The notes below the pieces were generated by a model. That model ran no database searches. It was not told where the DNA came from and saw only the letters and a program-made list of their open reading frames with translations. Both the position numbers and the translations under genes were made by a program. This document shows positions 4,036 through 47,214 of a DNA stretch of 64,000 nucleotides, piece by piece. How positions within the stretch are numbered: the first letter of the stretch is position 1; the number at the start of each line of letters is the position of its first letter. The DNA lies in the NCBI GenBank assembly GCA_964385825.1, contig CAYLPX010000004.1, positions 4,986 to 68,985 of the forward strand, given 5' to 3'. The DNA comes from an uncultured Candidatus Saccharibacteria bacterium (lineage in GTDB: Bacteria > Patescibacteriota > Minisyncoccia > Phycocordibacterales > JAKFXT01).

Positions 4036-5055
4036 CTAAAAATTAAATACTGGCGGTATAGCTCCAATAACAACCAGTGCGTTAACAAGATTAAACAGTG
4101 CAAATAATATCACAATAAGTCCTGCGGATTTGAAAAATACGCCAGACTTTTTGCTATTTTGGATACTAAATGAACTAAAACTAATAAGGGCAAGTACTGG
4201 TAATGTGCCTAGAGCAAATGAGAGCATTGTAAGACCGCCTTTCAAAAAACTACCTGTAGTGAGAGTGTAGAGTTGCATTGACTGGGTAAACCCACAGGGC
4301 AAGAAGAATGTCCCAATGCCAACCAACAGGGGTGTTAGTGTGTGGTTCAAGTTTGAAATACTGTGAGCACGCTTTGAAATAAACTTTGGCATTGATGGTT
4401 GTAATTGTTTTGCCCAAGGAAATACATCAAGCAAGTTGATACCAAGTATAATCATTACAACTGCGATAATAAGACCGAGTATAAATGTTCCTGTTGTGCC
4501 AAGTGTAAACGCAGAGCCAATCGCACCTATAACACCCCCAAGAATGAAAAAGGCGACAATACGCCCTCCGTGAAACATAAGCTGTGGTTTTATTTTGTCT
4601 CCCTCTTTAGCAAATGTTGCAGACATAGAAAGAACTAATCCTCCTACAACCGCCATACAAGTAGAAAGTGAGGCAATGATACCTACAAAGAATGCCGTGC
4701 CATAAGTTACATTACCACCACCAACAAGATTGACGATGCCAAGTTTTTGTAGAAGCACAAACAAGAACGCAAAACCCACCGCAATGGGTATCGCAATTTT
4801 GAAATCAGACCACCTCTTTTGAATTAAATGCTTCTCAACTGATATTGTATATCCGTTATCTTTAACAAGCATAGTAAGTTCTTCTGCAATTTCTATGTCT
4901 GTTTTGTCTCCAAAATCACCAACAATTTCTACTGAATGATTTTTGAGTTTTGATATAACTTTACTTACATTCGGCAAGTCGCCAATTTTACTCTCTGTCA
5001 GAATGACGCAAGCGTTACAATGCATACCGTGAATGTGAAATGTATATGTTTTCAT
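4036..5055 (-). CDS. HMA-domain fused to a DsbD_2/CcdA-like polytopic membrane protein
   Basis: N-terminal GMHCNAC metal-binding motif, then ~8 TM segments carrying STCMAV and FLPCGF Cys motifs. Confidence 0.55.
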   Translation of the reverse strand: MKTYTFHIHGMHCNACVILTESKIGDLPNVSKVISKLKNHSVEIVGDFGDKTDIEIAEELTMLVKDNGYTISVEKHLIQKRWSDFKIAIPIAVGFAFLFVLLQKLGIVNLVGGGNVTYGTAFFVGIIASLSTCMAVVGGLVLSMSATFAKEGDKIKPQLMFHGGRIVAFFILGGVIGAIGSAFTLGTTGTFILGLIIAVVMIILGINLLDVFPWAKQLQPSMPKFISKRAHSISNLNHTLTPLLVGIGTFFLPCGFTQSMQLYTLTTGSFLKGGLTMLSFALGTLPVLALISFSSFSIQNSKKSGVFFKSAGLIVILFALFNLVNALVVIGAIPPVFNF

Positions 5056-5057
5056 AA

Positions 5058-7349
5058 TTACAGTTTCATATTTTTAATTCGCAATGAGTTTACAACGACC
5101 GTTACACTCTCAAACGCCATAATTGCTCCTGCTATGGCAGGACTTAATGTCCAGCCAAAGAAAGGAAAGAGTATGCCACCTGCTATCGGTATACCTACAG
5201 AGTTGTATCCGAAGGACCAGATAAGGTTCTGCCAGATTGTTTTATTCGTTCTCTGTGCAAGGTGTATAGCTTCGGCGACTTTTACAATATCGCCCTTTAA
5301 TATAACAATGTCGGAACTTTCAATGGCAATGTCCGAGCCATCACTCATAGATATAGCTACATCGGCTTGAGCAAGTGCGGGGGCATCATTTACACCATCA
5401 CCAACCATCGCTACTTTGAGACCTTTCTTCTGCAATTCTTTTACAATGTTCAACTTATCTTCTGGTTTTACATCAGAATACACTTCGTCTATACCTAGAC
5501 CCTTGGCGATTGCCTCACTTGTCGCTTTATGGTCGCCAGTTGCCATCACTACTTTTAATCCCAGCCCTTTTAGTTTAGTGATTTCATCTTTTGCCTCTGA
5601 TTTTATTGTGTCGTGTATTTTAATCAAAGAAAGAACTTCATTATCATCAGCGAGATAAAGTTCACGACCGCTTTCAAAACGAGTGTCATCGAAATCTTTT
5701 TTTACGGTTTCCTCAGATTGTTTGAGTACACTTGCAATATAGGCACGAGAGCCGAGATAGTATTTTTTGCTTTGATATATTGCAGTTACTCCCTTACCAG
5801 CAATTTCACTCAAATCATTAATAGGGAGTGGGGAGATATTATTTTCTTTGAGCCATAGTGCGACACTTTCGGATACTGGATGTTTGGAAGATTTCGTAAT
5901 TGCATAAATAAGTGATTGATTAAATGAAATATGCTCTGGTTCACAAATATGATTTTTATCCCTACAATACACACCCTCAATAGCGAGTTTATTGTGAGTA
6001 AGAGTGCCTGTTTTATCAAATACAATCGCAGTAACTTTTGCAAGCTTTTCCAAGCTCTCTGCATTTTTAATGAGTATTCCTCTCTCTGCTCCACGTCCTA
6101 CGCCTGTAATGATAGCTGTTGGAGTAGCGAGCCCTAGCGAACACGGACACGCAATAACAAGCACCGCCATTGTCGTAGAAATTGCATAAGCAAATGCTTT
6201 AGTAAGCCCTAAACTGGCAGGTCCAAATATCATCCAAGAGGCGAAAGTAAGTATTGCAATTCCAATTACTACATACACAAACACTCCCGATATTCTATCT
6301 GCTGTACGTTCAATCGGAGCTTTTGAGTTTTGTGCGTTTTCAACGATTGAAATTATATGAGCAAGTGCAGTATCTTTCGGGTCTTTAGTTACTTTGATAT
6401 GCAATATACCTTGAAAGTTTTGCGTGCCTGCAAAAACAGTATCATTTACTCCTTTATCTACGGGAATTGCTTCACCTGTGAGCGTTGCTTCATCAATTGA
6501 ACTTGAACCCTCTATGACTATGCCATCAAGTGGTATGCGTTCATTTGGTTTTACAATTACAACGTCCCCGATGTTCACCTTTTCAACAGGAACTTCAATT
6601 TCTTTACCATCACGAACAACCAGTGCTGTTTTACTAGCAAGTCCTGCAAGTTTTTGTAATGCTTCGTTGGTTTTTTTCTTTGCTTTTGCTTCAAGGTGTT
6701 GCCCGAATGCAATCAAACCTATAACAACAATCACGACATCGTAAAAGTTAGAAGTAGTATTTATGTAGGGTGCGAGCACTTTATCAAAAGCAGTGATAAT
6801 AAATGAATATATAAAAGCAACGATAGTTGAAATACCAACTAAGGTATCCATATTTGCTGTGCGAGTTTTCAAGAATATCCAAACAGCCCTTATATATTTT
6901 CTGCCGATACCAAACAGTATAAAAGTGGCAAAGATGGGCATTAAATGGTGAAAAACCTCATACACATTTTCAGACATAGCCCCAATAACATTATTATCAG
7001 CTAGAACCTGCCAGAGCATCATAATGAATGAAAAACCAACCATTGGTAGCACAAACTTCATCTCAAGACCCATATCTTTTTGTTCGTTTTCGGCCATCAT
7101 TTTCATATGGTCGTGCACATCACTTCCATCTATTTTTTTATCGGTATCTTCAAGGGTATAGCCAAATGGAGAAATAACACTACTTAGTGTTTTTGTATCA
7201 ATCTGGTTATTTTCAAAATTAATAACCGCTTTTTCTTGAGCTAATTTTACCGATACAGTGCTAACCCCTGCAACCTTCTTAAGTTTATCTTCTATAAGCA
7301 CGACACAACTCGCACAGTGCATACCTTTTACTTTGTATATATGTTCCAT
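5058..7349 (-). CDS. copA: copper-translocating P1B-type ATPase
   Basis: GMHCASC HMA motif, CPC in TM6, DKTGTLT phosphorylation site, GDGVNDAP hinge. 763 aa. Confidence 0.9.
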   Translation of the reverse strand: MEHIYKVKGMHCASCVVLIEDKLKKVAGVSTVSVKLAQEKAVINFENNQIDTKTLSSVISPFGYTLEDTDKKIDGSDVHDHMKMMAENEQKDMGLEMKFVLPMVGFSFIMMLWQVLADNNVIGAMSENVYEVFHHLMPIFATFILFGIGRKYIRAVWIFLKTRTANMDTLVGISTIVAFIYSFIITAFDKVLAPYINTTSNFYDVVIVVIGLIAFGQHLEAKAKKKTNEALQKLAGLASKTALVVRDGKEIEVPVEKVNIGDVVIVKPNERIPLDGIVIEGSSSIDEATLTGEAIPVDKGVNDTVFAGTQNFQGILHIKVTKDPKDTALAHIISIVENAQNSKAPIERTADRISGVFVYVVIGIAILTFASWMIFGPASLGLTKAFAYAISTTMAVLVIACPCSLGLATPTAIITGVGRGAERGILIKNAESLEKLAKVTAIVFDKTGTLTHNKLAIEGVYCRDKNHICEPEHISFNQSLIYAITKSSKHPVSESVALWLKENNISPLPINDLSEIAGKGVTAIYQSKKYYLGSRAYIASVLKQSEETVKKDFDDTRFESGRELYLADDNEVLSLIKIHDTIKSEAKDEITKLKGLGLKVVMATGDHKATSEAIAKGLGIDEVYSDVKPEDKLNIVKELQKKGLKVAMVGDGVNDAPALAQADVAISMSDGSDIAIESSDIVILKGDIVKVAEAIHLAQRTNKTIWQNLIWSFGYNSVGIPIAGGILFPFFGWTLSPAIAGAIMAFESVTVVVNSLRIKNMKL

Positions 7350-32545: not shown

Positions 32546-32633
32546 GGAGACGTGGCTGAGTGGTCGAAAGCACCTCACTGCTAACGAGGCGTCCCTTTAA
32601 AGGACCGTGGGTTCGAATCCCACCGTCTCCGCA
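32546..32633 (+). tRNA. tRNA-Ser (anticodon GCU), long variable arm
   Basis: GGAGACG TG GCTGAGTGGTCGAAAGC A CCTCA CTGCTAA CGAGG CGTCCCTTTAAAGGACC GTGGG TTCGAAT CCCAC CGTCTCC G. Type-II variable arm. CCA not encoded. Confidence 0.85.
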
Positions 32634-34341
32634 AACTTGGAATATCTACCGCAAAAGGTAGATATTCTGCTTTATTAGAGCCATCATTTTTAGGTTCGAA
32701 CGCTTTTGTCGTGTTCGGGTATCTCACTGCTATCGCTGCGTAGAGATCGAGCGGATTCCTCAAGGAAATACTCAACTTTTTATCTTTTAGGATTATGTTC
32801 GATCGCGATAGTGATGCGAAGATGTCTCGCTTCTGTTCAGGAGCACCTTCTTCAAACCACAATCGTGCTGCTGTGGCGAAACTGAATGAGTTCTCGGCCC
32901 AGTCCACCCACTCGTCGATCTTGCGTCCGGTATTTTGCCGTGAAGCCTCAATCGCATGCTTTTCATCCATAAGCACTTTTCGTTGTGGCGTGTATTCCTC
33001 AAGAGATAGCAAAGACTGATCTGCGTTTTCCGGTGATGTGTAGAGTCGTGTGAGATTTTGGAGTTGCTGCACGATATCCTTGTAGCGCTTTTCCTGCACG
33101 TCGATTGTTACGTTTTGGTTTTTGATTTGCTGATCGTTATCTTTTGCAAGTTCTTCCAATGCCCATTTCGTAAATGCGCTAGAGAGTTCTATTTTTGAGA
33201 GAGCGGAATCGAGAAGAAATTCAAGATCTTCGGCTCGGACCGATGTTTGCGTACACTTTGGATTTTTACGCTTTGTACAGTGATAATAAACATAATGTAG
33301 CGTGGTTGGATTCACCATATCCGCGATCTTTCTTTTACACTTGGGGCAGGCGTCTTTATTTGGAGAGGCGAACTTATGTTTGCATGAATCACAGATGATC
33401 TGATGTTTTTCTTCTGCTGTAACCATTGAGCCGCATTCGCCGCACTCCGTTCTGCCTGTGAATGGAAAGAAGTGACCGTTGCGAGGGTGTGCTTTTCCTT
33501 TGCGACCCAGTTTCTGCTGTATAAGTTCAAATTGATCCATCGTGATCATCGGCTCATGCGCTCCTTTCACCAATTCCTTCTCACCGGTGTCATGATTCCG
33601 TGCCTCAAAGTATCCAGTGTAAAAGGGTTCGGTAAGTAAGCGATAGATGCCCGCCATGGATACTATTTTGCCGCCTTGCCGTTTTGTTTGCCGCGTTCGC
33701 AAGCCCCACTTCTTCGCTTGAAGATAGAGTTGTCGCACCGAATAGTGCCCGGCAAGATATTCCTCGAAGATCCGCTTCACTAGATCAAATCGCTCGGGAT
33801 CTGGAACGATTGTTTTCTCTCCCTTGAGAGTGTGGATATTGTTGAGATAGCCGATCGGTGCAACTCCATTTCTCCACCCTTGCAGCGTTTTTGCACGGAG
33901 TCCTCTCTTCACGTTCGTGCTCAAATCGCGGATGTACTGATTTGCCATGCCGAACTCGAGCGAGGCAAGAAGCACGTTGTCCTCCGGATAGTAATCGCGT
34001 TCGACTGTTTTGATGTGTTGGATGATACCTTTTTGAAGCATCCAACTTATGCGTCCGGCATCAACCGGATTGCGGGCGAGACGATCCATCTTCCAACAGA
34101 TAATGCCTCGCGCTTCACCTTTCTCGATCCGATCGAGTACGTCATTGAAGACCTTTCGTCCCGGGGCCTTCGCTGACATTGACTCAAAAAGAGGTTCACC
34201 GACTATCTTCAGATTGAGTCGCTTTGCTAGTTTTTTGAGTTCATCAATCTGCGAAGACAAACTCAAAACCTGCCGATCCTCGTCCTCCGTGGACTTTCGG
34301 CAGTAGATGAAGTATTTCAGATTTGGATTTGCTGTTTTCAT
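32581..34341 (-). CDS. large serine recombinase (homolog of the island 1 recombinase); ORF overlaps ~50 nt of tRNA-Ser
   Basis: YCRKSTEDEDRQVLSLSSQ, IICWKMDRLARNPVDAGRISWMLQKGI, a CGECGS zinc ribbon, and a second Cys cluster CDSCKHKF...CPKCKRK. 586 aa. Confidence 0.85.
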   Translation of the reverse strand: MKTANPNLKYFIYCRKSTEDEDRQVLSLSSQIDELKKLAKRLNLKIVGEPLFESMSAKAPGRKVFNDVLDRIEKGEARGIICWKMDRLARNPVDAGRISWMLQKGIIQHIKTVERDYYPEDNVLLASLEFGMANQYIRDLSTNVKRGLRAKTLQGWRNGVAPIGYLNNIHTLKGEKTIVPDPERFDLVKRIFEEYLAGHYSVRQLYLQAKKWGLRTRQTKRQGGKIVSMAGIYRLLTEPFYTGYFEARNHDTGEKELVKGAHEPMITMDQFELIQQKLGRKGKAHPRNGHFFPFTGRTECGECGSMVTAEEKHQIICDSCKHKFASPNKDACPKCKRKIADMVNPTTLHYVYYHCTKRKNPKCTQTSVRAEDLEFLLDSALSKIELSSAFTKWALEELAKDNDQQIKNQNVTIDVQEKRYKDIVQQLQNLTRLYTSPENADQSLLSLEEYTPQRKVLMDEKHAIEASRQNTGRKIDEWVDWAENSFSFATAARLWFEEGAPEQKRDIFASLSRSNIILKDKKLSISLRNPLDLYAAIAVRYPNTTKAFEPKNDGSNKAEYLPFAVDIPSLRRRWDSNPRSFKGTPR

Positions 34342-36152: not shown

Positions 36153-36360
36153 CTGAATAGCCCGTGAGGGCAGGACCTAACCCATCAAGAACAACTTGGC
36201 GGCACGGTCTAGTTAGTCGATCAAGCATAAAAAACCCGTCATGGGGTTGCTTGATCGCCGTATGGGGAAACCTGTACGAGAGGGTTCGCCCTCTACCCGT
36301 GGCGGGCTTTTTGTGTCTCGCTACAGGTTTTATCAGGTTGATCAGCGATCAAGCCAACCT

Positions 36361-36780
36361 ATGAAAACAAAACATGATGTCATTTTGCCCGGACGCGGGA
36401 TTTACTGGATTATCGGCTCCATTGTCGGAGTCTGCGCCCTACTCGCGTTTACGGGCCTAGTTTTGGTGAACACGCCCGATTCTCGAGATGGATATGTTCA
36501 GCCATCAGAGTCGAAGACGACCATAACGCCTGATCGTCAGCAGGAAGCGGTTAGAGCGATGGCAGATTTTATGGTGAAAGATAATAACGTGATCGGCCTT
36601 CGAATGTGGGCACGATCGCTTGGAATATCAAGCCCGGAGTTTTCAAGTACAGCAACCCTCCGTGAGGAGATTAGGCGTGCTTCAAGCGACTTTATGATTT
36701 ATCGCGACAAGAACGAGATGCTGCGTCTTGTTGAATTGTTAGGTAGTGATGCTGCTACTCTCAACGAAGTTGTTCGCTAG
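36361..36780 (+). CDS. hypothetical membrane-anchored protein
   Basis: One TM helix after MKTKHDVILPGRGIYWIIGSIVGVCALLAF. Confidence 0.4.
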   Translation: MKTKHDVILPGRGIYWIIGSIVGVCALLAFTGLVLVNTPDSRDGYVQPSESKTTITPDRQQEAVRAMADFMVKDNNVIGLRMWARSLGISSPEFSSTATLREEIRRASSDFMIYRDKNEMLRLVELLGSDAATLNEVVR

Positions 36781-39257
36781 CCAATCTTTGTGCGGATGCG
36801 GCGCTCCTCGTCTCCTTGCGGTACGAGTTCGAACTCAAAGTTCTCATTCAATTTCACGGTGGTTGTTTTTACTTTCACCTGCTCGATACTGCCTTTCATT
36901 GCTGTCATGCGATTGAGCACAGCGTCTTTGTACTCCGTATCTTCGTTACCCGCGAGTTGTTCTCCTTTGCTTTCGATAACGTACACAAACTCGAGTTCGT
37001 CTTTTTCATTTTTTCTTGCAATTACGAAGTCTGGGCGGATCTTGTTTCTTTGCCATCCTTGAATTGAGTACCAACCTTTTTGTGTTTTATTTCGTGCCCA
37101 CCAGATCACATTCGGACTCTGTTCGATGATCTTTGCGACGGTATGTTCGAGTGTGTTCATCGAGGCAATCTCGACGTCTTCATAGAGATTGAAAGAGAAT
37201 GCTGCTTGCACAGTGTTTGCAACAATATCTTTTTGCGGCATTTCGAAGCCGATTACATCATCATCAGACACAACAAGTATGAGAGTGTTACTTTTGACAA
37301 GATCTTCGAAGATCCCTTGTTCTTGTTTTCGTTTATGCTCGAGGAGGTGGCGCTCAAGTTCGCGAGCAACATATCCTGCATTTTGATCAAGGAGTTCTGG
37401 AGAGAACTTTTTGCCGAGAGTATCAGCAGCGATAGCGGCAATCGAGTGTGAGATAAAAGCATTGTCGATTGTTTCTGAAATACGGCGCGTTAGATAGAGT
37501 GTGTCGAACTTGAGTGATGCGAGAGATTCTGTCTGTCGTGCCACGCCCTTACCTTCAAGATCGATCACAATCTCAAGAGGATTTTCGCGTCGTTCTCCGA
37601 TCGTCGGCATGAGATCCTCGAGCCACTTGTTCAAGAGTTTACTAACGTCCCATGAGATCTTCGGCTTGATGTCGATATCGTATGAGAACTTACGATACTT
37701 GCGGGGGCCGTCTTTGATGAGCCATACGGGAAGGAAGAGTGACTCCGGGTATTTCTTACGGATATCTTTTTTGATTGAAACCACCTTCACAGGATTTACG
37801 ACGTTTCCTTGATGGTCGCGTATTTCGATACCCATCGATACATCGCCGAGTCCTTCGTCCTCAAATCCTTTTTTCACATTCTCGACGACTTCCTGCGTGT
37901 GTCCGGTGGCAAAGAAGACATAACTCTCGTCGAGATCTGCGACGCCGGTTTTCTTTGCGTAAGGTTGGCGGAGTACACGGCCAACGAGTTGTGTCATCGA
38001 TGAGTTTGTTCGAGCGTTCGGGATCACTCCGAGAATGTATGCGAATGAACAATCCCAACCTTCTTTGAGTGCTTCTTTCGTAATGATGTAGCGGATCTCG
38101 CTTTCGCGTGAGAGAAGTTTTTGCTGCTTTATTTCATCGATCGAACTCGATTTGACAGCGATCTCATGTTTTGGAACACCGAGATCGATCAAAAGTTCAC
38201 GGACATCTTCACTGTGAACGAGTCCTTGTCCGCGTTGATCTTTGCCCGTGCGCTCGACTTGAATGAGTGCGATCGGACGGATATAGGTGCCGTTATTTTG
38301 CTCAAGTTTCTTTGCCTTCTTTTGGAGATCATCGCGCTTTGTTTTGATTGCACCGATCATAGTGCGCCAATCCCCGGAGTGGATCGGGGGGATGAGGTGC
38401 ATATCAAGTTTGATCATATCCTCGGCCTTCAAGTCCTTTCCGGTAACGGTCGAAAGGATGTTCATACCACGTTTTGGGGTAGCAGAGAGGCCCATGATTG
38501 CCGTTGCGTTGAGGCCGTCGAGAGTAGACCGGGCAATATCCGTCCACATCGTGTGGAACTCGTCCACAATGATAAAAGGGTTGAGTGTGCGTATTACGTT
38601 GCCCAGAGAGGTTTTTACGAGGGTACGATCGAAAAGAGAGTCCTCGGTGCGGTCGAGATTCGGGACAAGTTTCAAAAGTTCGGCATGGAGGTCGTACCTG
38701 TTCTCCGGTGGAAAGAAATCCATATAGCCGCCACTATCTTCGAAGATCTTGTTTGTATCGCGTGTAGCCGACTGGATCATGAGCATGAGGACGACAAGGT
38801 TTTCTTGTACATCTTGCTGCCGGAGTGATTGACCCTTTTCGATGATAAGTGTGCGATTGCCGCTCGCTTGATCGAGGAGTTGTCGGTATGGATGACTTTT
38901 ATTTTGGAGATTCTCGATCGTTTGTCGGTAAATCTGATCGCGGTGTGTAATCCAAACCACAAGCCCGGTGCGTTTCTTTGCGAGAAGGTTTTGATATGAG
39001 CGGATTGCTTCGATAGCGACGAGCGTCTTTCCACCGCCGGTTGGCATTTTGATACACACGCGCGGATAGAGTCCATTAGCACCAGTTTTTGGACGATCTT
39101 GAAACTGTTCGTATTTCCCAACAAAGGCGACGTTGATCGGACTACCGAGCACTGATTGTAGATCCGGACTCGCGGCAAACTTTTGACGCGCAGAATCAAT
39201 GTCGCTGAAGAACGATTCGATATCACGCACTACACGTTGTTGATAGTTCTTGAGCAT
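36777..39257 (-). CDS. res: Type III restriction enzyme Res subunit (SF2 helicase-nuclease)
   Basis: Motif I MPTGGGKT and motif II VDEFH. 826 aa. Immediately downstream of the mod gene. Confidence 0.8.
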   Translation of the reverse strand: MLKNYQQRVVRDIESFFSDIDSARQKFAASPDLQSVLGSPINVAFVGKYEQFQDRPKTGANGLYPRVCIKMPTGGGKTLVAIEAIRSYQNLLAKKRTGLVVWITHRDQIYRQTIENLQNKSHPYRQLLDQASGNRTLIIEKGQSLRQQDVQENLVVLMLMIQSATRDTNKIFEDSGGYMDFFPPENRYDLHAELLKLVPNLDRTEDSLFDRTLVKTSLGNVIRTLNPFIIVDEFHTMWTDIARSTLDGLNATAIMGLSATPKRGMNILSTVTGKDLKAEDMIKLDMHLIPPIHSGDWRTMIGAIKTKRDDLQKKAKKLEQNNGTYIRPIALIQVERTGKDQRGQGLVHSEDVRELLIDLGVPKHEIAVKSSSIDEIKQQKLLSRESEIRYIITKEALKEGWDCSFAYILGVIPNARTNSSMTQLVGRVLRQPYAKKTGVADLDESYVFFATGHTQEVVENVKKGFEDEGLGDVSMGIEIRDHQGNVVNPVKVVSIKKDIRKKYPESLFLPVWLIKDGPRKYRKFSYDIDIKPKISWDVSKLLNKWLEDLMPTIGERRENPLEIVIDLEGKGVARQTESLASLKFDTLYLTRRISETIDNAFISHSIAAIAADTLGKKFSPELLDQNAGYVARELERHLLEHKRKQEQGIFEDLVKSNTLILVVSDDDVIGFEMPQKDIVANTVQAAFSFNLYEDVEIASMNTLEHTVAKIIEQSPNVIWWARNKTQKGWYSIQGWQRNKIRPDFVIARKNEKDELEFVYVIESKGEQLAGNEDTEYKDAVLNRMTAMKGSIEQVKVKTTTVKLNENFEFELVPQGDEERRIRTKIG

Positions 39258-39260
39258 GGT

Positions 39261-40871
39261 TTATGCAGTTCTCTCAAAGAGGTTATAGGGAATGCTCACG
39301 AACTTGATGTTGTATTGCTCGAGCGCTTCATCGTCCAAGAAACATGCCGGGGCATAGACGATCTTTTTCCCGGAATCTTTCTTATGCACTTTCTGTGCCC
39401 AGTCGAGAGTGATCGCTAGTTTTTTCAACTTCTCCGTGTCCTTTTCGTAAATGAGATAGATCGATTCACGATCTGCTGCACCAACGAACGAATCATCTTC
39501 CTTGATCTTTGATTCTGCCGGATGATTTTTGCCGGTTGCTAGGTAGTAGACGTACTTTGCAAACTCTTTGTATGTTGGGAGTTTGCCGGAGAGTATTGTT
39601 TCTGCATCGATTGCGGGGCCAAGTTTTGAGTAAGTGAATCCTGCTTTGTAAGAGTATTTCTTTGCGGCACGGCGAATCCGTTCTGCTGTTATTTCTTGAG
39701 CGTACTCCTCCATTTCAACAAGGATGAACTTCCTATCTCCTTGATCGGCTTTGTTGAGGTCGAGTACAGCGTGTGCTGTTGTTCCTGATCCTGCGAACGA
39801 GTCGAGGATGATTGAATCCTTGTCAGAAACAATCTCAATGAGGTGTCTTACGAGTTCTACCGGCTTCGGGTTGTCGAATATCTCTTGCTCGCCAAACAAA
39901 TCGGCGAGTTCGTCACCTGCTGATTTTGTTGTTCCGGCATCTTCCAAAACTAAAAGGAGTGGCTGTGCCGATTCTGTATCTTTGTCTTCAAAATCATAGA
40001 TCTTTCTTTTCACGACTCCTTCGTCGATAACAAGACGGCCTTTCGCTTCAAGATCTCGAGCGAGATCTTCACCGATCTGCCATCGCTTACCTTCACGAGG
40101 TTTTTGCCCCAAAATCTCAAATCGCATTGATTCTCTCCGGTATGAACCTGCGTTCTTTTTCTCAATGATTGCGAGGCGGTATTTACCCTCTGCATCGCTC
40201 AATGGATAACTGCGAGTTGTTGCGTACCTTACACGCGGCTTGATTCTGCCTTCCGGAGTTTTTGAGTAGCAAAGTGTGTAGTCAGTCAGACTGCTTACTT
40301 GTGCTCCCTCTACGTTTGTTGATGTTGACTTCTTTTTCCACTGAAAATCACCAATAAAGTTTTCTTCTTTGAAAATCTCATCCATCAATGAACGGGCATG
40401 GTGGACTTCGTTCGCATCAATGCTCACAAAAATCAAACCGTCAGATGCAAGCAATTCTCGCAAGAGTTTGAGTCGAGGTGTCATCATGCACAACCATTTA
40501 TCATGTCGTGAAAGATCGTCTTTTCCGACTGCCTTACCGATCCACTCTTGTATAGTTGGGCTGCTTACATTATCGCTGTATACCCACTCCTCGTTTCCAG
40601 TGTTGTAGGGAGGATCGATGTAGATACACTTTATTTTTCCTTGATACTTCGGCAGCAAACTCTTGAGTGCGAGGAGGTTGTCGCCTTCAATGATGAGGTT
40701 CTCGTCGGCATTATCGCCTTTGAGCGAGAGTTTGGCGTCCTTTTCTAGTGTATGATATGGCACCGAAAGGTGGTGGTTCCAGACTGCCGATTTTCCTTTG
40801 AAGTTTAGTGATGCCATATTGTTATTTGTTTTTTGCTTTGTTGATAAATTGTTCAAACTCACTACGCTCAA
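39261..40871 (-). CDS. mod: Type III R-M Mod subunit, N6-adenine (or N4-cytosine) DNA methyltransferase
   Basis: IYIDPPYNTG catalytic motif IV, FAGSGTT AdoMet motif I. 536 aa. Confidence 0.85.
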   Translation of the reverse strand: MSVVSLNNLSTKQKTNNNMASLNFKGKSAVWNHHLSVPYHTLEKDAKLSLKGDNADENLIIEGDNLLALKSLLPKYQGKIKCIYIDPPYNTGNEEWVYSDNVSSPTIQEWIGKAVGKDDLSRHDKWLCMMTPRLKLLRELLASDGLIFVSIDANEVHHARSLMDEIFKEENFIGDFQWKKKSTSTNVEGAQVSSLTDYTLCYSKTPEGRIKPRVRYATTRSYPLSDAEGKYRLAIIEKKNAGSYRRESMRFEILGQKPREGKRWQIGEDLARDLEAKGRLVIDEGVVKRKIYDFEDKDTESAQPLLLVLEDAGTTKSAGDELADLFGEQEIFDNPKPVELVRHLIEIVSDKDSIILDSFAGSGTTAHAVLDLNKADQGDRKFILVEMEEYAQEITAERIRRAAKKYSYKAGFTYSKLGPAIDAETILSGKLPTYKEFAKYVYYLATGKNHPAESKIKEDDSFVGAADRESIYLIYEKDTEKLKKLAITLDWAQKVHKKDSGKKIVYAPACFLDDEALEQYNIKFVSIPYNLFERTA

Positions 40872-41007
40872 TCCGGAACTCTTTGCCGATCTTGAACGCC
40901 TTGAGCCGTTTCGCCTTGATGTATCGGTAGATCGTCATGATGTTCACCGATAACATCTCCGCTAACTCTTTAGCGGTGTAATAGGGTTTGTCATTTTGCA
41001 TGGCCAT
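40822..41007 (-). CDS. excisionase-family / MerR-like HTH DNA-binding protein
   Basis: YYTAKELAEMLSVNIMTIYRYIKAKRLKAFKIGKEFRI. 61 aa. Confidence 0.65.
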   Translation of the reverse strand: MAMQNDKPYYTAKELAEMLSVNIMTIYRYIKAKRLKAFKIGKEFRIERSEFEQFINKAKNK

Positions 41008-41458
41008 TTTGATGTTTCTTGATATCTGCGGGCTTGTACCAAATCACTTTGCCGTTGTCATCGACTGAAAAAATGTGCAGGCATACTGCTACTGCAAACG
41101 CATACGGGATACGACGTATCGCGATATCAGCACTTTTTTTCGGAAGTGCGATACCGAAATAGTAACGTGCCTTCAAACTTTTCATTCGGGTAACTATCTG
41201 CCCGAGGGAATAGACGAAGGCAACCTCAAAACCCGATCGATAACTTGATGCACCTTTTGCTTCTATGAAAAAAGTCCGGCTGTATTGCGAGTTCGTTACC
41301 TTGATGTCGACCCCCGGCATTCGGAGGTCGTCATAGGTAAGGTTCTTGCTCCAACCGAGGTTCGCAAGATGCCGGATCACGGCCCGCTTCACAAACTCCT
41401 CGGATATGATTTTTGCCTTCACAGCCATGCTTTTATGATACTTTACTTTTGTTGACAT
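40991..41458 (-). CDS. PD-(D/E)xK nuclease-fold-like hypothetical protein
   Basis: PGVD...FFIEAKG (D...E-x-K) arrangement. 155 aa. First gene of the overlapping operon with xis, mod and res. Confidence 0.35.
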   Translation of the reverse strand: MSTKVKYHKSMAVKAKIISEEFVKRAVIRHLANLGWSKNLTYDDLRMPGVDIKVTNSQYSRTFFIEAKGASSYRSGFEVAFVYSLGQIVTRMKSLKARYYFGIALPKKSADIAIRRIPYAFAVAVCLHIFSVDDNGKVIWYKPADIKKHQNGHAK

Positions 41459-41496
41459 TACAATCCACAGAGGAGTACAATCAGGATGAAGAAACT

Positions 41497-43359
41497 ATGA
41501 AATACGTCGCTTTCAGTATCAAGAACTACAAAGGCATCGAGAAACTCGAACTCGATCTTTCAGGCAGCCAAAAGATCTTCACTCTAGTCGGACTAAACGA
41601 GAGTGGTAAAACTACCATTCTCGAAGCGTTGGATTTCTTTCAGGGGGATTTTGCAGATGGAGAGGAGCACACGATCATCCCCAAAAGTAAAAAGGGCAAC
41701 TTCAACGATTCTGTGTCAGTAACGGCCACCATTGAGGTTGATGCGGAGGACGAGAAGTCGATCAGGGAGGCAGCAAAGAAAGCAAACTTCAAGATAAAGG
41801 AAGGATACTTCCCGAAGACCATAAAAATCGAAAAGCGTTACGTTTTTGCTAGATCCAGTTTTGATACCACGAAACCCACTTCCTACTGGACGCTTGGAAT
41901 TGTGGGTGTAGATAAAGGAAAGAAGAAGGAGAAAAACGTGGACGGAGAAGCACTGAAGGCCATCATAAAACACATCCGTGAAAATTTACTCCCACCAATC
42001 ATCTACTATCCGAACTTTCTAACAAAGTTTCCACGGAGGATCTATCTTCAAGCGCAACCGAATGAAGATGACGAGCAGAGTTTTTATCGTGAGGTATTGC
42101 AAGATATTCTCGATTCACTCGAACAGGGCCTGAACATCGAGGAGCATATCGTCGCTCGTATCCATAGCACCGCGGAGCAAGATAAGGCATCGCTTGATGT
42201 CGTACTAAACAAGGTGGCCGCGAAGATCACCACGACTGTTTTCAAAGAGTGGGAGGAGTTGTTCGCATCACGGGGTAAAAAGATCGTAATTGAGAAAGGA
42301 AAAGAGAGGATCACTGAAACGGACTACCCCTATATCGATATCAAACTGGAGGAAGGATCTGATGTTTATTTTATTGCGGAGCGAAGTTTGGGATTCACTT
42401 GGTTCTTCTCTTTCCTGCTTTTCACAGAGTTCAGAAAGAACCGAGTGAAAGATCGCGGTGAGATTCTCTTCCTTATCGATGAACCGGCGTCGAACCTCCA
42501 CTCGACGGCGCAGTCAAAGTTACTTGGCACGTTTGATCGTATCGTTTCAAAAAGTAAATTGCTCTACACCACTCATAGCCACCACCTCATCAACTCCGCA
42601 CTACTCGAAGGTGCATACATTGTGAAAAATAAAGCCGTCGACTACGAAGAAACATCACTTGATTTTGATGCGCAGAAAACCGATATCACAGCGACTCCGT
42701 ACAAACAATTTGCGGCCGAGCATCCAGATCAACACACTTATTTTCAGCCGATTCTCGATACCCTTGAGTACCAGCCGAGCAACCTCGAACTAGTGCCAGA
42801 GATAGTAGTCGTGGAAGGAAAAAATGATTTTTACACTTTCAAATACATTCACGATTTCATATTGAGTGAGGAGAGCCGTAGTAAACTCAATCTACATTTT
42901 TATCCCGGAAACGGGGCCGGACAGAACGATCGCGTGATACGCCTATACACCGCATGGGGCAGAAAGTTTGCAGTGCTTATTGACGGAGACAAGGCCGGAC
43001 GAACTGCAAAAGCAAAATACATAGAGGAGATAGGAGTGTTCATGGAGAAGCGATGCCTACCACTGAACGACATCGATACTAAATGGAAGGATCAAAGCAC
43101 AGAAGACTTGTTCACTGATGCGGAGCGATTGAGAATCATAAAAACTGTATTCCCGAAGGAAACGAAATACACGAAAGGCCATTTCAATGAAGCCATTCAG
43201 AGTTTGATCGGGAGCCGGACCGTGGTATCGATAAATGAGGGTACGATCAAGAAGTTTGAAAAGGTATTCGCAAAAGCGCGAGAGGCACTTGATGTGGTCG
43301 ATCATGTGGCTCAAACAGTGGAGAAATCAGGGAACGCTTCCCAAGCGCCCACTGTATGA
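41497..43359 (+). CDS. OLD-family ATP-dependent endonuclease (ABC-type ATPase fused to Toprim), class-1-like
   Basis: Walker A GLNESGKTT, ABC signature/Walker B region ILFLIDEPASNLH, C-terminal Toprim (IVVVEGKNDF...LIDGDKAG). Transcribed divergently from the R-M operon. Confidence 0.7.
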   Translation: MKYVAFSIKNYKGIEKLELDLSGSQKIFTLVGLNESGKTTILEALDFFQGDFADGEEHTIIPKSKKGNFNDSVSVTATIEVDAEDEKSIREAAKKANFKIKEGYFPKTIKIEKRYVFARSSFDTTKPTSYWTLGIVGVDKGKKKEKNVDGEALKAIIKHIRENLLPPIIYYPNFLTKFPRRIYLQAQPNEDDEQSFYREVLQDILDSLEQGLNIEEHIVARIHSTAEQDKASLDVVLNKVAAKITTTVFKEWEELFASRGKKIVIEKGKERITETDYPYIDIKLEEGSDVYFIAERSLGFTWFFSFLLFTEFRKNRVKDRGEILFLIDEPASNLHSTAQSKLLGTFDRIVSKSKLLYTTHSHHLINSALLEGAYIVKNKAVDYEETSLDFDAQKTDITATPYKQFAAEHPDQHTYFQPILDTLEYQPSNLELVPEIVVVEGKNDFYTFKYIHDFILSEESRSKLNLHFYPGNGAGQNDRVIRLYTAWGRKFAVLIDGDKAGRTAKAKYIEEIGVFMEKRCLPLNDIDTKWKDQSTEDLFTDAERLRIIKTVFPKETKYTKGHFNEAIQSLIGSRTVVSINEGTIKKFEKVFAKAREALDVVDHVAQTVEKSGNASQAPTV

Positions 43360-43417
43360 AAGTAAGTTCTAACAGCATCTAACTCTCGCCGCAAAGTCTT
43401 GAGTGAAGCAAAAGCTT

Positions 43418-43466
43418 TGCGGAGACGAGGGATATGCATAAGCATATTCCGTGTGGGATTCGAAAG
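43418..43466 (-). pseudogene. fragment of tRNA-Ser 3' half (T-loop, T-stem and acceptor) with a 23-25 nt hairpin insertion, inverted relative to the intact tRNA-Ser
   Basis: Minus strand is TTCGAATCCCAC[ACGGAATATGCTTATGCATATCCCT]CGTCTCCGCAAAG. Two exact 12-nt matches to tRNA-Ser (TTCGAATCCCAC and CGTCTCCGCAAA) are in the correct order. The insertion contains the inverted repeat ATATGC-TTAT-GCATAT. Confidence 0.6.
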
Positions 43467-43562: not shown

Positions 43563-43593
43563 CCCCTCTTTTTTTATATACTGTAGCCATGAA
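43563..43593 (+). repeat. 31-bp perfect direct repeat, copy 1 (contains the start codon of 43589..43981)
   Basis: CCCCTCTTTTTTTATATACTGTAGCCATGAA is identical to 43995-44025. Confidence 0.9.
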
Positions 43594-43981
43594 ACTTACA
43601 CTTAATAAAAAGACACCGGTAAAAATTGCAACTTTTAAAAGAATTAAAACACTTTCTAAGCCAACAAAATCTTACATGCTGGGGACTATTTCTCTGTCAC
43701 CCGCAAAGATTATAGAAAACTTTGGCAAACCAACCTCATTGTTACCAGATACTTTCGGTGAGTTTATTTTTCTTTCCTCTGACAAAAAAACTATTTTCAC
43801 GATTTATGATTATAAAAGCAAAGAAGTGAACAAGCCCTCATCAAACCCCTGGACTAAAACACGGTCTCAAGAATTCTATTTTGGAGGAAAGAAAACATCA
43901 AAAACTGCAGTCAATATAGAAGCTTTTGTAAGTTTTTTAGCCTCACTTAGTATAAAAGCAACTGTCAAAACTAATTTTTAA
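43589..43981 (+). CDS. hypothetical protein (130 aa), flanked by the 31-bp direct repeats
   Basis: Lys-rich. No motif recognised. Confidence 0.4.
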   Translation: MKLTLNKKTPVKIATFKRIKTLSKPTKSYMLGTISLSPAKIIENFGKPTSLLPDTFGEFIFLSSDKKTIFTIYDYKSKEVNKPSSNPWTKTRSQEFYFGGKKTSKTAVNIEAFVSFLASLSIKATVKTNF

Positions 43982-44811: not shown

Positions 44812-46971
44812 ATGGAAGGAGCGACTCCATTAAGTAAAGTCCTGCGACTTTCTGAAGATCAAAAGAAGGCTCTTACTAGGCTCAATCTAAATACCGTAGA
44901 AGACCTGCTCTATCATTTCCCCGCTCGCTATAGTCAGTATGTGGAAAGTAGCAATATCGCCGAGGCACCGCTTGGAGAAAAAGGCAGCTGGTATGGCGTG
45001 ATACGTGACCTCAAACTAGGGAGTACTTTCAAACGGCATCTGCGCAAGGCTGAAGGGTCACTTGAAACCGTGAACGGTAAGGTCCGGCTCATCTGGTTCA
45101 ACCAGCCCTACTTAGCCAAAATGTTTAAAGAAGGCGACACCGTCCGTGTGTCCGGTAAACTCCAAGAGTACAATGGTGCGCGGAGTATTAGTAATCCTGA
45201 AATAGAAACCGTTCCTGAATTACCCCCTGAAGAAAAAGGTTCACTTTTTGGAAAGAAAAGTAATGAGTACTTTGCTTTCCCTATCTACCCTGAAAGTCGC
45301 GGTATTACTTCCCGTTTTTTCTATCACCATATCCAAAAGATTTTAAAAAGTGGTGTAGTAGACACCCTTCACGATCCTATACCAACTGATATTTTAGAAA
45401 CCTACAATCTTCCAACTCTTAAAACCGCACTCATCTGGGTCCACAGTCCCAAAAAAGAAAAGGATGCTGAAGTGGCGCGCAAGCGGTTTGCTTTTGAGCA
45501 AGTTTTCTACATTCAACTCCAAAAACAAAAAGATAGGCAACTGTATGAACAGAGTAGTGGGTTCAAACTAGATGCCCCCAAGGCAGTTATAGACACCTTC
45601 CTCACCCGCTTCCCCTTCTCTCCTACCAATGCACAAAAGAATGCTATCGCGAATATTTTAACTGATATGAAAAGTGGTAACCCCATGTCGCGTTTACTTG
45701 AGGGAGATGTGGGGTCGGGCAAGACAGCAGTAGCTGCCACGACGGCGTACGCCGTCGTGGCAGGGGTCCCAGAAAAAGATAGCCGCCTTTCACGCCTCCA
45801 AGTAGCTTACATGGCACCAACTGAACTTCTGGCCACACAACATTTTGAATCCTTCATTGAATACTTCAAACATTTGCCTATCAACATTGGGCTACTTACA
45901 GGAAGTGGCTGCCGCAAATTCCCCTCCAAAGTAGATCCGAGTGGCCATACCGCTGTTTCGCGTGCACAGTTACTAAAGTGGGTCAAAGAAGGTGATATTT
46001 CTATCCTTATCGGTACACACGCACTCATTCAAAAAAGTGTGCATTTCAAAAACCTCGCCTACATCATCATAGATGAACAACATCGCTTCGGGGTGAAACA
46101 ACGAAAAGAATTAACTCGCAAAGACGATCGTCTCCCCCATTTATTATCCATGACGGCCACCCCTATTCCGAGAACCCTCGCGCTTACCATTTTCGGCGAC
46201 CTAGATATTACCCTGCTCGATGAAATGCCGGCCGGTAGAAAGAAGATTGATACCCGCATTGTGCCGCCGACAAAACGTAAAGAAATGTATGACCATATTA
46301 AACGTGAATTGAAAGAAGGACGGCAAGCATACATCATTTGCCCACGCATAGATGAACCGGATCCCGAAAAAGAATTGGCCATTCAAGCCAAATCAGTGAA
46401 GGCTGAAGCTATCCGCCTCAAAAGAGATATTTTCCCTGAAGCTCGCATTGAAATACTGCATAGCAAAATGAAACCGAAGGAGAAAGACGAGATCATGATC
46501 GCGTTTAAAGCGCACAAAATAGATATTCTCGTTGCTACCTCAGTGGTTGAAGTGGGGGTGAACGTGCCGAATGCGACGAATATTGTTATTGAAGGCGCAG
46601 AGCGTTTCGGCTTAGCCCAACTCCACCAACTGCGCGGTCGTGTTATCCGTAGCAACCACCAAGCCTACTGCTTCTTACTTAGTGAAAGTGCTGGGGATAA
46701 GACTATGGAACGCCTCAAGGCCCTTGTAGAGGCTGAAAATGGCTTTAAACTAGCCGAACTAGACTTAACTATGCGCGGCACAGGAGGCCTTCTTGATAGC
46801 AAGCAATGGGGTATGTCTGATATCGCCATGGAAGCCATTAAAAATATCAAAATGGTAGAAGCCGCCCGCACTGAAGCCTCCCGTATCATAAAGACTGACC
46901 CAGACCTTACAAACTACCCCGCTCTTAAGGCTACCCTTACTCAGAAACTCACGCATTTGCACTTTGAGTAA
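44812..46971 (+). CDS. recG: ATP-dependent DNA helicase RecG
   Basis: Wedge-domain N-terminus, Walker A GDVGSGKT, DEQHRFG motif II, TATPIPRT, and helicase C-terminal motifs. 719 aa. Confidence 0.85.
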   Translation: MEGATPLSKVLRLSEDQKKALTRLNLNTVEDLLYHFPARYSQYVESSNIAEAPLGEKGSWYGVIRDLKLGSTFKRHLRKAEGSLETVNGKVRLIWFNQPYLAKMFKEGDTVRVSGKLQEYNGARSISNPEIETVPELPPEEKGSLFGKKSNEYFAFPIYPESRGITSRFFYHHIQKILKSGVVDTLHDPIPTDILETYNLPTLKTALIWVHSPKKEKDAEVARKRFAFEQVFYIQLQKQKDRQLYEQSSGFKLDAPKAVIDTFLTRFPFSPTNAQKNAIANILTDMKSGNPMSRLLEGDVGSGKTAVAATTAYAVVAGVPEKDSRLSRLQVAYMAPTELLATQHFESFIEYFKHLPINIGLLTGSGCRKFPSKVDPSGHTAVSRAQLLKWVKEGDISILIGTHALIQKSVHFKNLAYIIIDEQHRFGVKQRKELTRKDDRLPHLLSMTATPIPRTLALTIFGDLDITLLDEMPAGRKKIDTRIVPPTKRKEMYDHIKRELKEGRQAYIICPRIDEPDPEKELAIQAKSVKAEAIRLKRDIFPEARIEILHSKMKPKEKDEIMIAFKAHKIDILVATSVVEVGVNVPNATNIVIEGAERFGLAQLHQLRGRVIRSNHQAYCFLLSESAGDKTMERLKALVEAENGFKLAELDLTMRGTGGLLDSKQWGMSDIAMEAIKNIKMVEAARTEASRIIKTDPDLTNYPALKATLTQKLTHLHFE

Positions 46972-46994: not shown

Positions 46995-47067
46995 GCGGGT
47001 ATAGCTCAGTTGGTAGAGCAGGCGTCTTATACACGCCCGGTCCTTGGTTCGAGTCCAAGTACCCGCA
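46995..47067 (+). tRNA. tRNA with UAU anticodon (predicted tRNA-Ile, rare isoacceptor)
   Basis: GCGGGTA TA GCTC AGTTGGT AGAGC A GGCGT CTTATAC ACGCC CGGTC CTTGG TTCGAGT CCAAG TACCCGC A. The anticodon loop is CU-UAU-AC. CCA not encoded. Confidence 0.65.
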
Positions 47068-47214
47068 CAAAGGATTTATCATCCATATACATAGACACCG
47101 AAGTCTCTAGTCAAATCCAGTACATACGATGCATAATTCTGTATTACTACTAATTAAATAGACCTCAATCAAACCTCGAGTAATAAAGTAGAGTTATTTT
47201 TAAATTTAAAAAAT

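Follow-up and report, generated by a model that had tools for sequence, protein, structure and literature searches.

We analyzed a 64,000-nucleotide stretch of DNA (the window) from an uncultured Candidatus Saccharibacteria bacterium (GenBank assembly GCA_964385825.1, contig CAYLPX010000004.1, forward-strand positions 4,986 to 68,985), focusing on a plus-strand gene at window positions 41497 to 43359. An earlier note, made from the sequence alone, had proposed that this gene encodes a stand-alone OLD-family nuclease, with an ATPase and a Toprim domain in a single polypeptide, as a candidate anti-phage effector. We consider it probable that the product is an intact, divergent OLD nuclease, partnerless and of Class 1 by genomic context, and that its gene is exchangeable cargo of a mobile element.

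The OLD-family gene and its catalytic motifs

The gene is defined by its open reading frame (ORF), its translation, the start of its homologs, and profile matches, and encodes 620 amino acids plus a stop codon. The start codon is the ATG at 41497. An alternative, longer reading begins at a TTG at 41413, and one database entry calls the protein as 635 amino acids. Position 41497 is nevertheless the real start, because the homologs all begin at the methionine of MKY. The coordinates given by the earlier note, together with its Walker A, signature, Walker B, VVVEGKND, and DGD motifs, are all found in the translation. We assessed conservation in an alignment of 72 sequences from many phyla (30 to 72% identity), to which all statements of invariance below refer.

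Residues 1 to 365 (41497 to 42591, plus strand, as are all features of this gene) comprise an ABC-type ATPase region with an inserted helical/β domain, recognized by Foldseek and by Pfam AAA_15 (87.6 bits; cutoff 32.1). The Walker A motif GLNESGKT (G32 to T39; 41590 to 41613) contains the invariant residues G32, N34, E35, G37, K38, and T39 and aligns with GPNGAGKT of TsOLD. It is followed by a signature-like motif, RSLGF (R296 to F300; 42382 to 42396), in which S297 and G299 are invariant, while R296 and F300 are conserved in at least 90% of sequences. The Walker B motif LFLIDE (residues 324 to 329; 42466 to 42483) aligns with those of TsOLD and P2 Old; its D328 and E329 are invariant, as are the following P330 and A331. 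Lastly, the H-loop THSHH (residues 359 to 363; 42571 to 42585), with invariant T359, H360, and S361, aligns with the THS of the same two proteins.

The Toprim domain spans approximately residues 430 to 540 (42784 to 43116) and is identified by a match to Pfam OLD-like_TOPRIM below that model's cutoff and by fold matches of the C-terminal region modeled in isolation. Its first motif, EGKND within VVVEGKND (42814 to 42828), contributes the invariant residues E440, G441, and D444. The second, the DxD of LIDGD (42982 to 42990), contains the invariant D496 and D498 and aligns with HDED of TsOLD and ADCD of P2 Old. Thus, the Toprim acidic residues E440, D444, D496, and D498, whose absence the earlier note had named as grounds for abandoning its proposal, are present in every one of the 72 homologs.

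The metal-A ligands of TsOLD are E377, D431, and D433, and its metal-B ligands are D381, S478, and E480; R487 of TsOLD is the functional counterpart of K562 in BpOLD (PMC7049728). Mapping these roles onto the protein makes E440, D496, and D498 candidate metal-A ligands, and D444 (at E+4), together with S534-T535-E536, candidate metal-B ligands. E536 (43102 to 43104) is conserved in at least 90% of sequences, and its spacing recalls the S478-x-E480 of TsOLD (PMC7049728). The invariant K560 (43174 to 43176) is, by spacing and conservation, a candidate basic active-site residue equivalent to BpOLD K562 or TsOLD R487. In the AlphaFold2 model it opens the first helix past the Toprim domain (residues 560 to 573), which is one of four helices that follow this domain. 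The conservation pattern indicates that the ATPase and the two-metal Toprim site are intact and under strong purifying selection.

Evidence linking the protein to OLD nucleases

Since the Pfam OLD-like_TOPRIM match falls below its cutoff, the Toprim assignment needed profile and structural evidence, both of which the earlier note had called for. A single-protein phmmer search against PDB sequences aligned the ATPase motifs and nothing else. The 72-sequence profile, searched against the same sequences, has TsOLD (6P74) as its best match (E = 3.5e-10), aligned over three collinear stretches that correspond to Walker A, Walker B with the H-loop, and Toprim. In the Toprim stretch, vEGksD of the profile lies over LLVEGYGD of TsOLD and LDsD over VHDED, which pairs E440 with E377 and D496/D498 with D431/D433. 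An hhalign comparison with P2 Old (97.3% probability, E = 2.7e-11) gives one alignment of 173 columns that covers Walker B, the H-loop, and the Toprim glutamate and DxD, with E440 at LLVEGKTE. YbjD was also considered as a relative, and was rejected, as it aligned at Walker A only (79% probability). GajA sequences were not among the best 60 profile matches in the PDB.

Structure prediction gives the same picture. The full-length AlphaFold2 model has a mean predicted local distance difference test score (pLDDT) of 84.6. Its best Foldseek matches are GajA (8u7i, 8sm3, and 8x5i) and TsOLD, while the heads of Rad50, SMC, and PtuA match the ATPase part. A separate model of residues 398 to 620 (pLDDT 85.1) matches, in rank order, the C-terminal regions of BpOLD and XccOLD, the Toprim of retron Eco2, GajA, and TsOLD, with DnaG only after these. 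The fold alignments to known OLD proteins have 10 to 15% identity. No other fold competes with the OLD type in the models.

Together, the invariant catalytic residues, the profile matches to TsOLD and P2 Old, and the fold matches to GajA, TsOLD, BpOLD, and XccOLD uphold the assignment of an OLD-family ATPase and Toprim to one polypeptide. The likeness could instead be superficial, with an AAA_15-type ATPase only and no catalytic Toprim in the C-terminal region. The sub-threshold Pfam Toprim match, the phmmer alignment confined to ATPase motifs, and low structural similarity scores would fit such a protein. However, E440, D444, D496, D498, and K560 are invariant, the glutamate and DxD keep their proper order when the profile is aligned with TsOLD and P2 Old, and the eight best fold matches of the isolated C-terminal domain all carry OLD-type Toprims. 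We therefore regard this explanation as largely refuted, and give it almost no credence.

A divergent homolog family

A word-indexed search recovers more than 3,139 homologs of about 590 to 620 amino acids. An exhaustive phmmer search over 1.84 billion representatives yields 365 clusters at E ≤ 1e-30. By sequence, the OLD clade thus comprises about 365 clusters at 50% identity, and we call it divergent because no curated OLD, Toprim, or defense model reaches its threshold. A genome scan located 80 loci, in Patescibacteria, Bacteroidota, Proteobacteria, Cyanobacteria, Firmicutes, Zixibacteria, and one Nanoarchaeota bin. A tblastn search against 50,697 phage records returned zero matches at E ≤ 1e-3, and a plasmid search found only 23 to 28% identical genes annotated as "AAA family ATPase."

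Matches to PADLOC models are partial. The best is AriA (94.9 bits, over residues 1 to 365), followed by Old, AbiLi, ATPase-Toprim_I-B, and GajA; the GajA models match short N-terminal stretches only.

Genomic neighborhoods and the lack of a conserved partner

After ORF calling in the 80 loci, we clustered the neighboring genes and analyzed the 77 loci (the window included) that had a recognizable OLD-family ORF. No neighbor family is found in more than 9 of the 77. Those that recur are HsdS, HsdM or type IIG enzymes, HsdR, and Fic. Among the 105 immediate neighbors, the Pfam families seen most often are domains of restriction-modification (R-M) and type IV restriction systems; the counts are Methylase_S (7), ResIII (6), HSDR_N (5), Fic (4), N6_Mtase (3), N6_N4_Mtase (2), GmrSD_N (2), and HTH_17 (2). 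An HsdS homolog lies at most three genes away in 9 of the 77 loci, and one or two gene neighbors away in 8. In the R-M cases, the OLD gene is on the same strand and within the operon, in arrangements such as HsdM-HsdS-OLD-HsdR (loci L009 and L010; L-numbers denote the loci of relatives), Mod-OLD (L012), and IIG-OLD-HsdS (L037 and L043).

We find no conserved partner. Neither a UvrD-type helicase, nor a reverse transcriptase (RT), nor a separate Toprim gene is present among those families with two or more members in the 105 immediate neighbors. Around the gene in the window, protein-family searches of 18 neighboring ORFs found no RT domain, and an Rfam search (E ≤ 1) of the 18 kb from 30 to 48 kb detected two tRNAs and a LOOT RNA only, and no retron RNA. 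The only helicases in the surveyed 34 to 50 kb are a restriction subunit (Res, below) and the housekeeping RecG at 44812 to 46971, which lies past the end of the element homology. A GajB/UvrD-like gene is likewise missing next to the OLD gene, as the earlier note had observed.

Two candidate partners were rejected. A recurring downstream gene of about 190 to 220 amino acids did not hold up, as sensitive all-against-all phmmer joined only L001 and L006. The gene that follows in the window, correctly described in the earlier note as an unknown of 130 amino acids (43589 to 43981), has no matches and lies outside the mobile element and also outside the block of homology to L081, L083, and L086.

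The protein is assigned to Class 1 by genomic context because there is no conserved partner, helicase, RT or noncoding RNA, or split Toprim. The proposal that it stands alone is borne out by the lack of a partner conserved across the 77 loci, by close relatives that occur without R-M genes, and by the replacement of the gene in one relative of the element (L086).

Comparison with known systems

The protein shares with Class 1 OLD proteins (P2 Old, TsOLD, and Vc OLD) the metal-A (E and DxD) and metal-B (E+4 D and xE) ligands, and the P2 old gene is likewise borne on a mobile element. Nevertheless, the clade is very distant from Class 1 in sequence and differs in several details. Its Walker B motif has the canonical D-E, whereas E276 replaces the aspartate in TsOLD, and its S-x-G signature is well conserved, whereas that of described Class 1 members is degenerate (PMC7049728). 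The invariant basic residue, K560, is helical and lies 24 residues past the second metal-B glutamate, compared with 7 residues in TsOLD; its position in a post-Toprim helix resembles that of K562 in the Class 2 protein BpOLD. By analogy, the protein probably works like a Class 1 OLD, while being distant from the canonical members.

Class 2 or Gabija GajA proteins (8SM3 and 8U7I) are the best full-length fold matches, and BpOLD and XccOLD (6NK8 and 6NJW) the best for the C-terminal domain. Gabija, however, includes a GajB-type gene (UvrD/PcrA/Rep-like), and no such neighbor occurs in the window or the 77 loci. The PARIS proteins AriA/AriB (Class 4), AbiLi/AbiLii, and the retron I-B effectors (Class 3) follow the same logic of an AAA_15-type ATPase and a Toprim. 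In PARIS and AbiL these are divided between two genes, whereas here both domains lie in one 620-amino acid ORF; retron I-B effectors depend on an RT together with an msr-msd RNA, and the searches around the OLD gene and in the element found neither. Gene content thus rules out the Gabija, retron, and PARIS readings.

The nearest precedent in architecture and setting is HEC-04, an ATPase-Toprim fusion that came to light through its embedding in Hma systems; its validated defense activity requires the lysine of Walker A and also the E/DxD residues (bioRxiv 10.1101/2024.01.29.577857). Like HEC-04, the clade consists of single proteins with an ABC ATPase and an OLD-like Toprim, and it is likewise found embedded, in its case in type I, IIG, and III R-M operons. 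HEC-04 is nonetheless a different family: it is absent from the best 25 PADLOC matches, and its Toprim residues E319/D375/D377, compared with E440/D496/D498 here, suggest a shorter ATPase region. In addition, HEC-04 is embedded in its host operon, while the OLD gene of the window is divergent from the R-M operon.

Several findings weigh against reading the protein as an intact Class 1 OLD nuclease. No NCBIfam model scores above any cutoff (the Eco8 effector model reaches 32 bits against a cutoff of 250), no PADLOC model spans the whole protein, and Pfam OLD-like_TOPRIM, on residues 436 to 498, reaches 20.1 bits, under its gathering cutoff of 23.2. The Foldseek template modeling scores (TM-scores) are low, near 0.3 with the full-length model and near 0.4 with the C-terminal one. 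The isolated C-terminal domain is also marginally nearer to the Class 2 C-terminal regions (E = 1e-3) than to TsOLD (E = 6e-2), although the TM-scores are alike (0.39 to 0.41). At 620 amino acids, the protein exceeds the typical Class 1 length; TsOLD has 525 (PMC7049728) and P2 Old 586, while deposited GajA chains have up to 626 residues. Class 1 OLD genes have been described as not near other defense genes, whereas this clade is often beside or inside R-M operons, contrary to that description (PMC10568477), and the recurrent linkage to R-M leaves room for functional coupling. Because the TM-scores lie at 0.3 to 0.4, we describe the clade as structurally divergent. Not being near defense genes is a descriptive trait of Class 1 and not a defining one.

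The divergent restriction-modification operon and its promoter region

The earlier note described the gene as divergent from an R-M operon across a short intergenic region. Both are there, with a gap of 38 bp, although the operon opens with two genes that this description did not include. In order, the operon contains p155, a helix-turn-helix (HTH) gene, a type III methyltransferase gene (Mod), and the type III Res gene, all on the minus strand. The first of these (40991 to 41458) encodes a 155-amino acid R-M–associated accessory protein. The second (40822 to 41007) encodes an HTH_17 (excisionase/MerR-like) DNA-binding protein of 61 amino acids (PF12728, 55.9 bits), which is kept beside Mod in L081 to L083, L086, L089, and L090. 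Mod (39261 to 40871; PF01555; PADLOC MTase_III, E = 1e-136) likely has its true start at 40817, which gives 518 amino acids and matches the gene calls in L081 and L082. Res occupies 36777 to 39257 (PF04851; PADLOC REase_III, E = 1.2e-132). Elsewhere, in a Patescibacteria relative with 55% OLD identity (L003, 9798 to 11800), a gene for a 62-amino acid HTH_17 homolog precedes the OLD gene by 14 bp in the same orientation, which hints that a small HTH protein can accompany OLD as well as R-M genes.

p155 has no Pfam, PADLOC, or NCBIfam match. It has 59 homologs (E ≤ 0.001), of which the named ones are from Patescibacteria and a few are fused to HARE-HTH (PF05066). A PD-(D/E)xK-like motif, GVDIKV...FIEAKG, was read by eye, and p155 may have an accessory nuclease or regulatory role. 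Homologs with 80 to 92% identity head p155-HTH-Mod(-Res) operons that have no OLD gene (L086 to L090), and distant ones follow HsdR in type I operons or lie beside an HsdR fragment. p155 was considered as a partner of OLD and rejected, as its homologs accompany type III and type I R-M systems that have no OLD gene and it is missing beside the 81% identical OLD relative in L083. Because its homologs travel with R-M genes and not with OLD, p155 belongs to the R-M module. The p155-HTH-Mod-Res cassette is a separate defense module that shares a back-to-back promoter region with the OLD slot.

Overlapping the 38-bp spacer between p155 and the OLD gene (41459 to 41496), a promoter-like sequence, TTGACA-18-TACAAT, precedes the OLD gene on the plus strand (41452 to 41481) and agrees with the consensus at 11 of 12 positions. 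Its -35 element overlaps the p155 start codon (41456 to 41458). TTGACA and TAnnAT are kept, with the same spacing, in L081 to L083, and likewise in L086 and L089 despite their different cargo. The back-to-back promoter architecture thus belongs to the slot, since it is conserved whatever cargo is present. The earlier note had suggested a shared control region: the back-to-back architecture is real and the promoter is conserved across cargos, but the OLD and R-M modules are separable.

The same region contains a mini-ORF of four codons, ATG AAG AAA CTA TGA (41486 to 41500, plus strand), whose TGA overlaps the OLD ATG; the corresponding position begins with GTG, GTG, and TTG in L081, L082, and L083, respectively. 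As a transcription start is predicted just upstream, the mini-ORF might serve as a leaderless ORF for coupling; chance could also explain it.

A mobile element with a variable defense-cargo slot

We find that the OLD gene is the last gene of a serine-recombinase element of about 10.9 kb (approximately 32.55 to 43.40 kb) that is integrated at a tRNA-Ser. Its terminal position follows from the recombinase and tRNA-Ser at the left and the break in homology at the right. The left end and integration site is a tRNA-Ser(GCT) gene (32546 to 32632, plus strand; ARAGORN; Rfam, 59.7 bits). It overlaps by about 50 nt the 3' end of the opposite-strand ORF of a large serine recombinase (32581 to 34341, minus strand), which has XisF/CcrB-type NCBIfam matches.

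The right end (43392 to 43464) is defined by blastn end points and by a repeat of the tRNA 3' end in inverted orientation. DNA homology with L081, L082, L083, and L086 stops at 43392 to 43395, 33 to 36 bp past the OLD stop codon. Beyond this break, L081 and L086 have other genes, while the contigs of L082 and L083 end there. This inverted repeat of part of the tRNA-Ser 3' end occupies 43416 to 43464 (TTCGAATCCCAC ... CGTCTCCGCAAA), with two 12-nt matches split by a 25-nt palindrome. No simple direct att repeats were found flanking the element, only this inverted and interrupted copy. RecG, like the 130-amino acid ORF, is outside the element; a tRNA-Ile with a TAT anticodon (46995 to 47068, plus strand) directly follows recG.

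The LOOT RNA (RF03000; 69.7 bits against a gathering cutoff of 46.4) lies inside the element, at 36174 to 36294 on the plus strand, between p186 and a 179-amino acid ORF whose annotated start it overlaps. The region is conserved in L083 and L086. A literature search on LOOT RNA returned nothing useful.

Comparison with the loci of close relatives (OLD identity 87% in L081, 90% in L082, 81% in L083, 77% in L084, and 73% in L085) shows that parts of the element are exchanged. L083 shares the backbone with the window (recombinase 84%, p179 78%, HTH 70%, and OLD 81% identity) and has no p155. Its type III system has the same layout but diverges strongly in sequence (Mod 43% and Res 27% identity). 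The R-M cassette therein (L083 3582 to 7575; window 36777 to 41007) has apparently been swapped with the layout kept. L084 and L085 have OLD in other recombinase or primase elements without R-M genes; L085 has the same recombinase/tRNA layout, but with a tRNA-Glu.

Conversely, L086 to L088 have the same backbone and R-M cassette, while the segment corresponding to 41466 to 43312 of the window is replaced. In its place are genes for a 202-amino acid protein with a weak Csx27-like match and a 335-amino acid metallo-β-lactamase (MBL)–fold protein. The latter, a defense candidate, matches PDC-M48B, LmuA, and Avs1a in PADLOC. In L086, from Kaiserbacteria-like contigs, this slot covers 4325 to 5942. 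All three loci retain the last 47 bp of the OLD gene and the following 36 bp. In L089 and L090, the slot encodes unknown proteins of 228 and 262 amino acids. Homology with the OLD-less cassettes of L086, L089, and L090 ends at 41464 to 41465. Because different cargos fill the place behind a conserved promoter, the position is a variable defense-cargo slot, and OLD is one interchangeable occupant. Neither module needs the other, since the R-M cassette occurs without OLD and close OLD relatives occur without R-M.

Defense, coupling to restriction, and other possible roles

This separability bears on an explanation in which OLD is not autonomous and is instead a second line of defense, similar to PrrC or PARIS, that remains silent as long as the R-M system is undamaged and fires when a phage anti-restriction factor disables the R-M system or mimics its target. 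Both modules would in that case be regulated together, by the back-to-back promoter and the HTH protein. Such coupling would account for the divergence of OLD from a type III cassette in the window, L081, and L082, and for L083, where the same OLD (81%) and backbone lie beside a very different type III system in the same layout. It would also suit the repeated same-strand position within type I, IIG, and III operons among the 77 loci, with HsdS at most three genes away in nine, and the promoter -35 element that overlaps the p155 start codon, at the head of the R-M operon; published work reports that anti-restriction factors trigger PARIS, PrrC, and Gabija. However, most loci have no R-M gene beside the homolog, the closest R-M–free relatives (73 to 77% identity) are alone in other mobile elements, and the R-M cassette is also found without OLD and with unrelated cargo in the slot. 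Embedding of unrelated defense genes in R-M or Hma operons is, moreover, a general phenomenon (bioRxiv 10.1101/2024.01.29.577857). The separability of the modules argues against an obligate relationship with R-M, and we think coupling unlikely, though it is the leading alternative. We are similarly doubtful of a further possibility: that the clade is a distinct, R-M–linked class of backup OLD proteins, made as a single fused polypeptide and silenced by the restriction complex or sensing its inhibition, which in Patescibacteria is cassette-swapped behind a fixed promoter in the defense slot of a tRNA-integrating element.

The protein might also serve the element or the cell outside defense, through maintenance or addiction, exclusion of competitors, or a role in replication or the cell cycle like that of archaeal Cran1. 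The gene is borne by integrative or plasmid-like elements, an OLD-family ATPase with a nondefense role has been described (PMC12796447), and YbjD has phenotypes that are independent of its Toprim domain. Against this, the distribution is patchy over many phyla, a defense-candidate module replaces OLD in an otherwise identical element, and the neighbors are enriched for restriction genes. The nuclease residues are also strictly conserved, which a structural or ATPase-only role would not demand. These observations leave a nondefense role quite improbable.

We thus favor an autonomous, intact OLD nuclease, and it is plausible, by analogy, that its gene is a fairly ordinary anti-phage gene. We infer its enzymatic activity, trigger, substrate, and defense phenotype from characterized OLD proteins. 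The ATPase probably dimerizes via the domain inserted in the ATPase fold and would act as a sensor or switch, and ATP binding or hydrolysis would license the Toprim site. There, E440, D496, and D498 would bind metal A and D444 and E536 would bind metal B, while K560 might serve as the transition-state or leaving-group residue. The resulting cleavage of nucleic acid would halt phage replication, either directly or by abortive infection.

Characterized relatives differ in substrate. Vc OLD nicks DNA and blocks ICP1 replication as a single-gene defense (PMC12392090), and TsOLD degrades DNA (PMC10568477 and PMC7049728). P2 Old, once activated by ATP hydrolysis, cuts the anticodon stems of tRNA (PMC12445682), and AriB of PARIS also cuts tRNA. 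By analogy with these proteins, we lean slightly toward nicking or degradation of DNA as the activity here, with tRNA cleavage a somewhat less likely but serious contender.

Implications

The findings leave the view of how OLD proteins work unchanged, and the concept is not new, because the HEC-04 fusion has already been shown to defend. The gene can aid annotation and offers a candidate for experiments, but it is not surprising. Defense has been demonstrated for only a few single-gene OLD proteins (P2 Old, Vc OLD, and HEC-04), and phenotypes are reported for YbjD as well. Current pipelines label members of the clade "AAA family ATPase" because the Pfam Toprim and NCBIfam matches are sub-threshold and no full-length PADLOC model exists for them. 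Naming the clade would improve the annotation of defense genes, notably in the small genomes of the candidate phyla radiation. The slot beside the type III R-M system, occupied by OLD, by an MBL-fold module, or by unknown genes, also provides a clean natural comparison for finding defense genes.

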